DNA of 63,574 nt, filler included. It is 21 parts of 21 records of this genome, joined end to end, with 100 filler letters (N's around TTAATTAATTAA, not from the genome) between each part and the next. Parts side by side here need not be neighbours in the genome. Positions count along the whole stretch, not along the records: positions 38,289 to 40,330 come from SRR36015645_30741; positions 40,431 to 43,057 come from SRR36015645_31093; 19 more parts are not named here. One strand, written 5' to 3'. The stretch's first letter is position 1. Each line of letters opens with the position of its first letter. This document shows positions 39,001 through 42,000 of the stretch, piece after piece. The position numbers were made by a program.

Positions 39001-42000
39001 CTTCCGTAACAACATAATTGGCTAAAAGGATTATAGACCGATATCGTTGTCTCTGCAGAATCATGGAAAGGCACAAATGTATTTGATGCACAGCAGCCAA
39101 TATTGAATGTGTTCCTTTCAAAAATTCTTCCTTGACAACAAGTACTGTTTACTAAAAAGTAGGGAGCTGGCACAGTGTTTGATTTGCCGGTGACGTCATA
39201 ACAGCAAGAATCGTATAGAGATTTATCGTATGTTGCACTGCCACAGCAGCCATGTGTTGTGATGTTGTAGTTAACTGAGCCACATCGAGCTAGTGACGGG
39301 ATATTCTTATCGCAACTACTTTTCCAATCTGTGTAACCGAAATATATATATAATGGTATACTCTGTTCGCAACAAGACTCTGTTAATATGTTAAACGTTT
39401 TGTTGCCACAGCATGTGATGCCAAACTGATGTTCATATACTTCGCCATTACAGCACATATGCATCAAAGGATTATATGCAGAAATTCCAGCACTGACTGA
39501 GTATAACATTCGATTCATGCAACAGGAAGTGTTTAAGCCTTTTTCAAACACAGCTCTGCCACCGCAGCACATCTCTCTTGCAGTATTATATGGCAATTTT
39601 CCACAACATTTCACGTCCGCCGAACTCCTATTGTACAAACTACCTCCACAGCAAATATAGTCTTCCACATTATATGGTTTATCTGCGCAACGGTAGGTTC
39701 TAGGCACTAATGTGCGTCCCCCCGGATATCTGTACGAGCAACTCATTAATGTAGCGTTGTACGGTACACTATCACAGCAGGAAGTGGCATTGTTTTTATC
39801 ATATAACGTTCCTTGACAACATATTTCTGTCGCCAAATCATACGGTTTGAACTCTGAAGAGTTTCGGATTTTGCCGCAACAAGATGTGGTCGTCCCGGGC
39901 GGAATGTCGTGAATTAAATTACCGCAGCATGTTTTTGTATAACGATCATAAATCTCGTTTCTGCAGCAACCATGTGTCTTGTAAGAATATGTAGTGTTGC
40001 CACAACAACCGGTGTGATGCGGTGACTCCTTAATGATAAGGTTTTGTGACCTACAACACACGTGCCTACTTCTGTCGAATGGTATTCCATTACAACAGGA
40101 CATTTCGTCACTTGTTTTATTATACAGTCTTCTGTTGCAGCATATTGAAGTTTTGTCAGAATAGCATTCGTTACCACATTTTGATCTGCAGTGGACCCCA
40201 GAGTAGTGAGAACAATATTGCATTTCACTATCAAAGGGAACAATATCGTTACAACACTTTGTATTGCTCCCAATATCATATACCGTTCCATTGCAGCAGA
40301 ATTGCTTTTCTCCGTCAATCACTTTGCCATNNNNNNNNNNNNNNNNNNNNNNNNNNNNNNNNNNNNNNNNNNNNTTAATTAATTAANNNNNNNNNNNNNN
40401 NNNNNNNNNNNNNNNNNNNNNNNNNNNNNNAAAGTATCGGCAACATCTGGGGAACCAACATCGGATGCGGCGCCGGCGTCTATCCATGAATTGCGCCAGA
40501 TTAAAGACTTACAGACAGAAGTAGAAAGACAGATGCGTCACGACCCAATTGTTGGTGAACAGTGTAAACAGAATGTGGATATTTGTTCTGCAGGTAATAA
40601 TGATTTTCTATACGCGTGTAAATCTGATTCTTGTGTAACAAAAGTTAAATCTGGAATTCAGCTAAAAGCATCTGACATAGTTAAGCGCCAAGAGAATTAC
40701 CCACATGCCTTTTTGCAGTATGAAGACCAAAATATCTCTTATAACAATTTAACAATGCCGCAGTTTGTTTCGGGGTTTATGTGTATTTTAAATTCGGAAA
40801 TTTCTGAGGTAGAAAGGCAAGGTAGAACTCAGCACTTAGCTAAATTAATGCACTATGCAAACAGTTATCCTTGGCATACAATTTTACAGTTGCATAAATC
40901 AGTTGTCTTGTCTATTGAGATGGGCCGAAAGGAATGGGACTCGGATTTCTCCGATATTGAGAACAGTGTCTTGCTAGGATTTGCCTTAAATAACAGGAAT
41001 GTAATGAATAATAGGGTGCCGAACAATGACAGTGTTTTCTATTGTAGTAATTTTCAAAACAATACTTGCAGATTCAAACAGAGAAGTCATTTTCAATTGA
41101 TAGCTGGTGTTAATAGAAATGTGTTGCACATTTGCAAGAGATGCTGGGTTTCTCAGCGCGAAAAGGCGTGGCATAGTGAGGGGTCCGAGTCTTGTCCTCT
41201 TCGGAATGAACACAACAAATGACTAGGCTTAGGGCGTGCATCAGGTAGACCTATTCCTTCTGTGACCAAAGCACGTGTGTATAACAAAAGATTTGTAAAC
41301 AACACCGGTACTATTAGTAAATGTTATAATTCTGATAATACATGTAACGTGTCTAATGTGGATAAAAGTGTTTGTTTGAAACAAGGCACAACTGTAATTA
41401 GTGCTAACACGCAAGCTTTGCGCCAGACATCAAAAATTTTGGCATTGGATGTTCAGTCACAGTCGGCTGAAGCTACTTGTAAACAGCCTAGTAAAGTTCA
41501 CAACCTGCAATCTAAAAACGAAGAGAGGCGGCATGTTAATAGTTTGGAACCAATACCTAATATTGATAGGCCTACTAATGTGCTTTTAAAGCAAAACATG
41601 GAAATCATTTACAGTGTACGGTTCTTGCTTATTATGTATGTTATGACAGTGTGTTTTATGCTTATGTGTTTTAGTGTTGCAAACGTCTCACTTCCTATCG
41701 CAGACACAGGCCTACTTCAGCACAGTGCTTGTAATACGTGTAGTTCTGTTTCAGAATGCCTTTTTGAGAGTCAGTGTGCAGGTATCGATTTTGGTCCCAA
41801 AGCGTTATTTTGCAGTAAAGGTAAAATTAATAAGGTTGCGGTGCCCACGAAGGCACAAAGCTTTACAGTTACACGTTCTGGCCTAAAGCATAAAACCTTC
41901 TTCGAAAGTACTTTACTGTTCGATATTATTAGTCAACGGCATGTAGATATGTCTGATGGATTAGGCTTTGTAAGTTACGCACTCTCCGATGAGTATGACC

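Follow-up and report, generated by a model that had tools for sequence, protein, structure and literature searches.

Translation past a stop codon is known as a means of joining Gag to Pol in gammaretroviruses and in some other retroelements, and the UGA-CUAG readthrough motif is also known. The subject of this study is a truncated retroelement, called the query below, that lies in a 63,574-base stretch of DNA (the window). Its gag-like open reading frame (ORF) ends in TGA-CTAG, and the same frame continues into a reverse transcriptase (RT). The closest described signals belong to the type II class of readthrough sites. According to the available text of one report, UGA-CUAG directs efficient readthrough in four mammalian genes, and UGA-CUA alone gives 1.5% (PMC4132726). 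The 12 nucleotides 3' of the stop suffice for maximal activity, and replacement of UGA by UAA or UAG reduces readthrough 6-fold in the first case and 3-fold in the second (PMC4132726). The extended form UGA_CUAGGC is the context of OPRL1, Ross River and Getah (PMC4132726). The type II motifs of viruses are given as UGACUA and UGACGG in the accessible part of a second source (PMC13517186).

The relatives of the query point to Ngaro, a group of tyrosine-recombinase retrotransposons. Ngaro elements, placed in the order DIRS, were reportedly described by Goodwin and Poulter in 2004; DIRS1 and PAT, unlike Ngaro, carry a methyltransferase domain. An earlier reading of the window, made from its sequence only, held that retroelements of this kind are usually described with separate or overlapping ORFs, and the available parts of two reviews do so (PMC9210276, PMC3266345). 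Control of the Gag:Pol ratio in tyrosine-recombinase retrotransposons is essentially unstudied, the accounts, as far as their text is available, merely listing an ORF overlap or none. A literature search, which did not reach the founding Ngaro papers, gave no paper in which Ngaro or DIRS is connected with readthrough of stop codons or with frameshifting, and the 300,000 characters searched of a large recoding review contain no mention of DIRS, Ngaro or tyrosine recombinase. A family-wide junction of the UGA-CUAG type in a group of tyrosine-recombinase retrotransposons appears to be new.

The gag-pol junction in the query and its relatives

The element occupies a contig of 2627 bp and 39% G+C at positions 40431-43057 of the window. 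Its main features are as follows.

40431-41219, plus strand: gag-like ORF of 263 codons, its 5' part cut off where the contig begins; identified by translation and by homologs upstream of the RT in relatives.
41220-41222, plus strand: TGA stop codon of gag, the proposed readthrough site; the sole in-frame TGA of the contig, at a position homologous to the gag stop of relatives.
41223-41228, plus strand: 3' context CTAGGC, giving UGA_CUAGGC, a type II readthrough motif by its sequence, by the context counts in the family and by comparison with PMC4132726.
41223-41912, plus strand: spacer of 230 codons from the stop to the conserved N-terminal region of the RT; open only in the gag/pol frame and without a homolog.
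41913-43057, plus strand: conserved pol region, comprising an N-terminal domain and the RT with its YIDD motif, cut by the contig end; 334 homologs, 40-50% identical in this part.

Read in frame from 40431, gag ends in AAC AAA TGA (41214-41222), followed by CTA GGC TTA GGG CGT GCA TCA. Translation bore out the sequence-only reading, which had placed the stop at 41220-41222, CTAG directly after it and an open frame from there into the RT. The frame after the stop is open over 41223-43057, which is 611 codons to the contig end, and the total frame of 875 codons has no other stop. A GTG at 41262 and the first in-frame ATG after the stop at 41598 are likewise where they had been reported.

In this layout pol is probably expressed by context-driven type II readthrough of UGA, which would yield a minority Gag-Pol fusion. 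Most ribosomes would terminate at the gag UGA, yielding Gag. A minority would decode the UGA with a near-cognate tRNA owing to the short context CUAG(GC) 3' of it, would need no downstream RNA structure for this, and would then cross a fast-evolving unstructured linker before entering the RT. In the query UGA is directly followed by CUAG, and the ORF beyond it keeps the frame, has no stop from its first codon on and continues into the RT, as in type II systems. The stop and its context are kept in diverged relatives, the flanks being variable, which is a further type II property. Ribosomal readthrough as such, its rate and the activity of the query copy are what we infer from this pattern.

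The stop is the normal gag end of the family and not a nonsense mutation, because the best gag homologs end at the homologous position. Gag and spacer together were searched by full HMMER against 1.84 billion representative proteins, and every one of the 1194 matches at E<=1e-3 was to the gag part. Query residues 250-266, a region that spans the gag end at residue 263, are reached by the alignments of 140 of the 150 best gag homologs. The homologs' own C terminus lies within 15 residues of the query gag end in 134 of these 150 and within 5 residues in 103. The nearest gag relative, P0122 (58-59% identity), ends within 3 residues of the query stop. The query gag carries a C-terminal Cys/His motif that ends SCP-x7 before the stop, and it matches ORFs located upstream of the RT in related loci with E values down to 1e-33. 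One 722-residue protein, P0241, runs past the gag end and was taken up as a possible fusion; its extension is unrelated and is not an RT, and the candidate was rejected.

The junction was compared across related families, in place of an alignment of copies of the query's own family. Eighty related loci, with RTs 40-50% identical, were fetched from public metagenome contigs by RT alignment, and profile hidden Markov models (HMMs) of gag and RT were searched against all of their stop-to-stop ORFs. Clustering at 70% RT identity gave 59 clusters besides the query. Gag is found upstream of the RT in 58 of the 80 loci and is visible in 44 of the clusters. In 40 of the 58 loci gag ends in TGA and the pol ORF runs from the very next codon, in frame and without a further stop. 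The sequence-only reading had named a sense codon or an out-of-frame pol in other copies as grounds for refutation. Made on the related families, this check favoured readthrough: it returned a clean in-frame TGA junction in 30 of the 44 clusters, besides out-of-frame genes in 8. Three other clusters are decayed copies that keep the in-frame TGA-C and have later stops, and three are decayed in other ways.

Context was counted in 31 representatives, namely the 30 clean clusters and the query contig. The base at +4 is C in all 31. At +5, T is present in 24; at +6, A in 18 and G in 9; and at +7, G in 14 and A in 10. The motifs following TGA are CTA in 15 (CTAG in 8), CTG in 6, CTC in 2, CTT in 1, CA in 5, CC in 1 and CGG in 1. 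The complete TGA-CTAG is common to the query and to seven relatives (L003, L006, L026, L038, L042, L058 and L065). The codons flanking TGA-C vary freely among the representatives, nothing else near the stop is conserved, and in-frame TGA was not found elsewhere within gag or pol of the clean loci. In an RT tree built with FastTree the TGA-C state is found to either side of the midpoint root, as well as in the majority of supported clades, and the query adjoins L003 with a support of 93.

The junction between pol and the recombinase gene of the same elements, present in 34 clusters, served as an internal control. Gag and pol are in frame in 36 of 44 clusters, which has a probability of 5e-11 against the expected one third if the clusters are taken as independent, whereas pol and the recombinase ORF are in frame in 11 of 34 (frames 0, 1 and 2 in 11, 10 and 13). 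The stop codon is TGA in 38 of 44 gag-pol junctions; the control has TAG in 13 clusters, TAA in 11 and TGA in 10. The +4 base is C in all 33 in-frame TGA gag-pol clusters, compared to T in 25, A in 5, G in 2 and C in 2 at the control. By Fisher's test, again with clusters taken as independent, the two junctions differ in frame (1.7e-5), in the use of TGA (3.6e-7) and in C at +4 (4e-17). The layout, its conservation in diverged families and this contrast are direct observations. The earlier proposal that pol is made as a Gag-Pol fusion by leaky termination thus draws support from the 30 of 44 clean clusters, from C at +4 in 31 of 31 and from a control junction that is random in frame. The T after the pol stop in 25 of 34 clusters (e.g. 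L003:4236 and L079:3683) is a bias that runs counter to the C at the gag stop, and may reflect base composition only.

The spacer, RNA structure and the identity of the element

The query spacer contains no stop in the gag/pol frame, compared to 9 and 32 stops in the two alternative frames, and the chance of such a stop-free stretch, estimated from base composition, is about 1.3e-7. The spacers of the families together have no stop in 2036 codons in frame, compared to 108 and 242 per ~2005 codons in the other frames. The shortest, that of L069, has 2 codons and the longest, that of the query, has 230; they cannot be aligned between families. No homolog of the 230-codon query spacer was found among the related loci or in the HMMER protein search. 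A test of the ratio of nonsynonymous to synonymous substitution rates (dN/dS) in this region, suggested by the sequence-only reading, gave values of roughly 0.3-1.4 for pairs that are nearly identical or saturated; it indicates weak constraint, and the nature of the pairs limits it to that. One part of the query spacer stands out.

41622-41678, plus strand: hydrophobic stretch of 19 residues with a Kyte-Doolittle mean of 2.46, unique to the query copy among the spacers compared.

The mean does not exceed 1.56 in the other spacers (31 listed, 24 long enough to score). The stretch resembles a membrane segment and may be a family-specific insertion.

Other spacers have peculiarities of their own. 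Three tandem 78-nucleotide units (26 codons each, 81-82% identical) are located in frame within the post-stop spacer of L003 (L003:2175-2437), and this linker evidently grows through in-frame duplication. The peptide LNPLAxxFxP occurs once each in L015, L031, L056 and L080, always in the post-stop spacer and nowhere else in gag-pol, and is absent from the query. It resembles the consensus of the PAM2 motif, which binds poly(A)-binding protein. A PAM2-like peptide in a linker that would be made only by readthrough could bind that protein.

RNA folding gave no sign of a stimulatory structure. The 100 nucleotides 3' of the query stop fold no better than dinucleotide shuffles (z +1.62; pseudoknots are outside the model). 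In the 31 representatives the mean z is +0.45 after the stop, compared to -0.32 before it and -0.06 further downstream. A type III signal consists of UAG-G and a 3' pseudoknot or stem about 8-12 nucleotides downstream; the stop here is UGA-C, with no folding signal. The sequence-only reading had pointed to a complement of the junction as a possible stimulatory element.

41485-41492, plus strand: 8-nucleotide complement of the junction, AGCCTAGT, pairing with ACTAGGCT at 41222-41229; judged to be due to chance.

The complement is indeed present. The pairing has a shuffle p of about 0.03 in the query, and p<=0.05 is reached in just 2 of the 31 representatives, as chance predicts. Its 5' arm takes in the last base of the stop codon. 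This base is inside the ribosome during decoding, and because of this location it cannot pair at that moment. The long-range pairing was rejected as a stimulator, since it does not recur in relatives and overlaps the stop codon.

The identity of the element was established through its pol region. The RT HMM match starts at contig nucleotide 1483, and Pfam RVT_1 matches residues 420-551 of the query ORF2 (approximately 42480-42875) with E=2e-9. At E<=1e-3 there are 334 homologs of the pol part; identity is about 50% in the best of them, over the RT part only. The named RT relatives come from mussels, amphioxus, acorn worm and sea anemone. One of them, P0019, combines the RT with PF13472 (GDSL/SGNH hydrolase), and another, P0067, combines it with PF00589 (phage integrase / tyrosine recombinase).

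The longer related loci contain, in this order, gag (~300-570 codons), pol (556-724), a third ORF (326-393) and a fourth ORF (~180-207). Their pol ORFs of 556-724 residues end after RNase H. The third ORF, of 326-393 residues, lies downstream of pol in 32 of 34 clusters, the other two being cut by the contig end. Three of five third ORFs tested match PF00589 weakly, under the Pfam cut-off (E 7e-5 to 1.4e-3), and all four of the relatives' fourth ORFs tested match PF13472 above it. Direct repeats of 119 nucleotides, 93% identical and 5638 nucleotides apart, lie on either side of the ORFs in L031, and L069 has a pair of 41-nucleotide direct repeats 4048 nucleotides apart. The four relatives' loci examined showed no inverted repeats, and the A1-B1A2B2 pattern was not made out among their direct repeats. 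A methyltransferase domain had no Pfam match in the pol of L003, the one pol scanned for it, and Pfam scans of the ORFs of the query and its relatives found no protease domain. The gag, RT/RNase H, tyrosine recombinase and SGNH hydrolase of the relatives fit the Ngaro layout described for Xenopus in the available part of PMC9210276.

The query is best explained as part of a Ngaro-like tyrosine-recombinase retrotransposon whose host is a marine animal. Its Ngaro membership is read from the relatives because its own copy shows only gag and about half of the RT. The DIRS/Ngaro label of the sequence-only reading therefore holds through the relatives, the contig itself showing no recombinase.

The window is not one genomic stretch. 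It consists of 21 short, unrelated contigs of 2.0-5.9 kb, with a G+C of 0.39-0.48, that are connected by linkers of the form N44-TTAATTAATTAA-N44. The element is truncated on both sides by the edges of its contig (40431 and 43057), and the start of gag, RNase H, the recombinase and a terminal repeat are all absent from it. No second copy of the element was found on the other 20 contigs. On the contig at 11916-15280 an RT-like sequence matches the query pol weakly (27% identity over 114 residues). One DNA run, a marine sediment metagenome, shares part of the stretch (21% of words). Assembly from three runs gave three short contigs at a depth of about 2, none of which spans the junction.

Alternative explanations and other modes of pol expression

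Of the alternatives, the one that survives best, unlikely as it is, holds that gag and pol are separate cistrons. Pol would then be expressed by reinitiation, leaky scanning, an internal ribosome entry site, an internal promoter or a subgenomic or spliced RNA, and the shared frame would be incidental. Start codons for such expression exist in the query, where in-frame ATGs follow the stop at 41598, 41634, 41643, 41658 and 41664 in the spacer and at 41949 within the RT match. Separate or overlapping ORFs are what the two reviews give for such elements (PMC9210276, PMC3266345), a minor promoter has been reported at the Tca2 junction in the available text of PMC2194720, and in one clade of relatives pol opens after TAA or TAG and contains an ATG early on. 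Separate cistrons, however, do not depend on a shared frame, on TGA or on C at +4, yet all of these are kept in 30 of 44 clusters, and the control junction is random. Furthermore, 22 of the 40 clean loci lack an ATG between the stop and the RT core, and the stop is just 2-8 codons ahead of the core in four loci (L069, L075, L005 and L071). The query frame, moreover, is free of stops from the first codon past the TGA.

Less probable still is passage of the stop by a non-canonical route that goes beyond local context, such as a distant RNA element, RNA editing or a host factor, as proposed for Tca2. The immediate flanks of the Tca2 stop were insufficient in a yeast reporter (PMC2194720, as far as its text is available), and the evidence for the present family comes from sequence alone. 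The element conserved here, however, is precisely the short motif that is sufficient in animal cells (PMC4132726). Nothing else is conserved near the stop, and there is no structure signal in the 31 representatives (mean z +0.45).

It is very improbable that the UGA is a sense codon, either for selenocysteine or through reassignment in the host nuclear code, so that gag-pol would be one ordinary ORF. A single in-frame UGA in an otherwise open frame of 875 codons would suit this explanation, but in 10 of 34 clusters TGA is the codon that terminates pol in these same elements, and it is found nowhere else inside gag or pol of the clean loci. Mussels, amphioxus, acorn worm and sea anemone, the named hosts of the RT relatives, use the standard code. 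A dead copy, in which the TGA would be a nonsense mutation or an assembly error in a once continuous or unrelated arrangement, has hardly any credibility: the fragment has a depth of only ~2x and no second copy across the junction, but the stop is at the conserved gag end of the family (with P0122 ending within 3 residues of it), the same TGA-CTAG is present in seven relatives and there is no other stop in 875 codons.

Some relatives seem to express pol in other ways. In a well supported clade of four loci gag and pol overlap by 37 or 52 nucleotides, and pol is in the -1 frame.

L019:1216-1252: -1 overlap of gag and pol.
L066:1936-1972: -1 overlap of gag and pol.
L018:242-278: -1 overlap of gag and pol.
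L021:1416-1467: -1 overlap of gag and pol.

In all four, an A_AAA_AAC heptamer is positioned in the gag frame immediately 5' of the gag stop. Outside the heptamer the overlap sequence of L021 differs from those of L018, L019 and L066. No structure was found 3' of the heptamer by minimum-free-energy folding (z +1.67 and +0.04; pseudoknots are outside the model). The heptamer points to a classical -1 frameshift site, which would be another recoding route to the same Gag-Pol fusion, and it looks as though this clade has switched from readthrough to -1 frameshifting.

A second clade, of 15 rows in the RT tree, is without TGA-C. It includes L044, L052, L054, L057, L062, L064, L068, L073, L077 and L078. 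Pol opens there after TAA or TAG and has an ATG only a few codons in; gag, where visible, uses a different frame or lies apart from pol across a gap. This arrangement suggests a third way of pol expression. It is plausible, if tentative, that Ngaro-type elements of marine animals made Gag-Pol ancestrally, and mostly make it to this day, by UGA-CUA(G) readthrough that is independent of structure. The mode would then have changed repeatedly, in one clade to -1 frameshifting at A_AAA_AAC and in another to separate ORFs.

Several points weigh against readthrough of the gag UGA and have to be set beside the evidence for it. The layout is not universal, since gag and pol are in different frames in 8 of 44 clusters and the 15-row clade lacks TGA-C. 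A search for fused Gag-Pol among proteins of 481-1532 residues, limited in sensitivity, gave 228 word-index candidates and none at E<=1e-3. The five spacer ATGs from 41598 onwards and the sixth at 41949 leave room for internal initiation in the query copy. No RNA run is among those that match the stretch, and no reads cross the junction. The query copy is a fragment at ~2x, whose exact base calls and own activity depend on a single assembly. The families are related to each other, so that the cluster counts are not fully independent, and the tree was made by FastTree alone. The in-frame gag-UGA-pol junction of Tca2 gave no readthrough in a Saccharomyces cerevisiae reporter (PMC2194720, in its available text). 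Tca2 is, by analogy, a warning that layout alone is no proof of readthrough.

Significance and comparison with known systems

If readthrough is the ancestral mode and has been changed repeatedly, the elements would use a recoding mode not known to be described for the whole DIRS order, and they would provide a natural series for the study of swaps between recoding signals. For the control of the Gag:Pol ratio, the conserved UGA-CUA(G) junction offers a concrete, testable mechanism. The animal type II motif would be extended from a few vertebrate genes and alphaviruses to a large and old family of invertebrate mobile elements. Dozens of natural variants (CUAG, CUGG, CUAC, CUAA, CUCG, CAA and CGG) would become available to calibrate readthrough rules outside mammals. 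In annotation, gag and pol of such elements would have to be joined across the stop and not called two genes.

The present family is like Ngaro elements in that its relatives have flanking direct repeats and that neither inverted repeats nor a methyltransferase was found in those examined. It is unlike the published Ngaro accounts, whose available text gives overlapping or non-overlapping ORFs and no in-frame leaky stop. The copia-type element Tca2 of Candida albicans shares the in-frame UGA between gag and pol, and Tca2 pol is expressed from gag-pol RNA (PMC2194720). The Tca2 flanks, however, contain a putative pseudoknot (PMC2194720, as far as available), whereas the present family keeps the animal-type CUA(G).

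Moloney murine leukemia virus (MoMLV), a gammaretrovirus with a type III signal, resembles the present family in having an in-frame stop between gag and pol and a low Gag-Pol to Gag ratio, which here would follow from the proposed readthrough. Its signal is UAG-G with an H-type pseudoknot starting at +12, according to the accessible part of PMC13517186, compared to UGA-C without a detected structure here. The present elements also differ from MoMLV in having a tyrosine recombinase in place of an integrase and in that no protease domain was found.

The closest likeness is to the type II sites, as classified by Beier and Grimm, of the animal genes OPRL1, OPRK1, AQP4 and MAPK10 and of the alphavirus nsP3/nsP4 junction, in all of which UGA is followed by CUA(G). 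The query and L058 share the entire CUAGGC with OPRL1, Ross River and Getah (PMC4132726). In those systems UGA is obligatory and structure is not required, and none was found here. The signal of the present family, known from its sequence alone, differs from the animal and alphavirus one in that CUG, CUC, CAA and CGG variants are tolerated across families. Unlike the animal genes, in which readthrough adds a short tail, the junction described here connects the gag of a retrotransposon with its pol, and a complete polymerase forms the extension.

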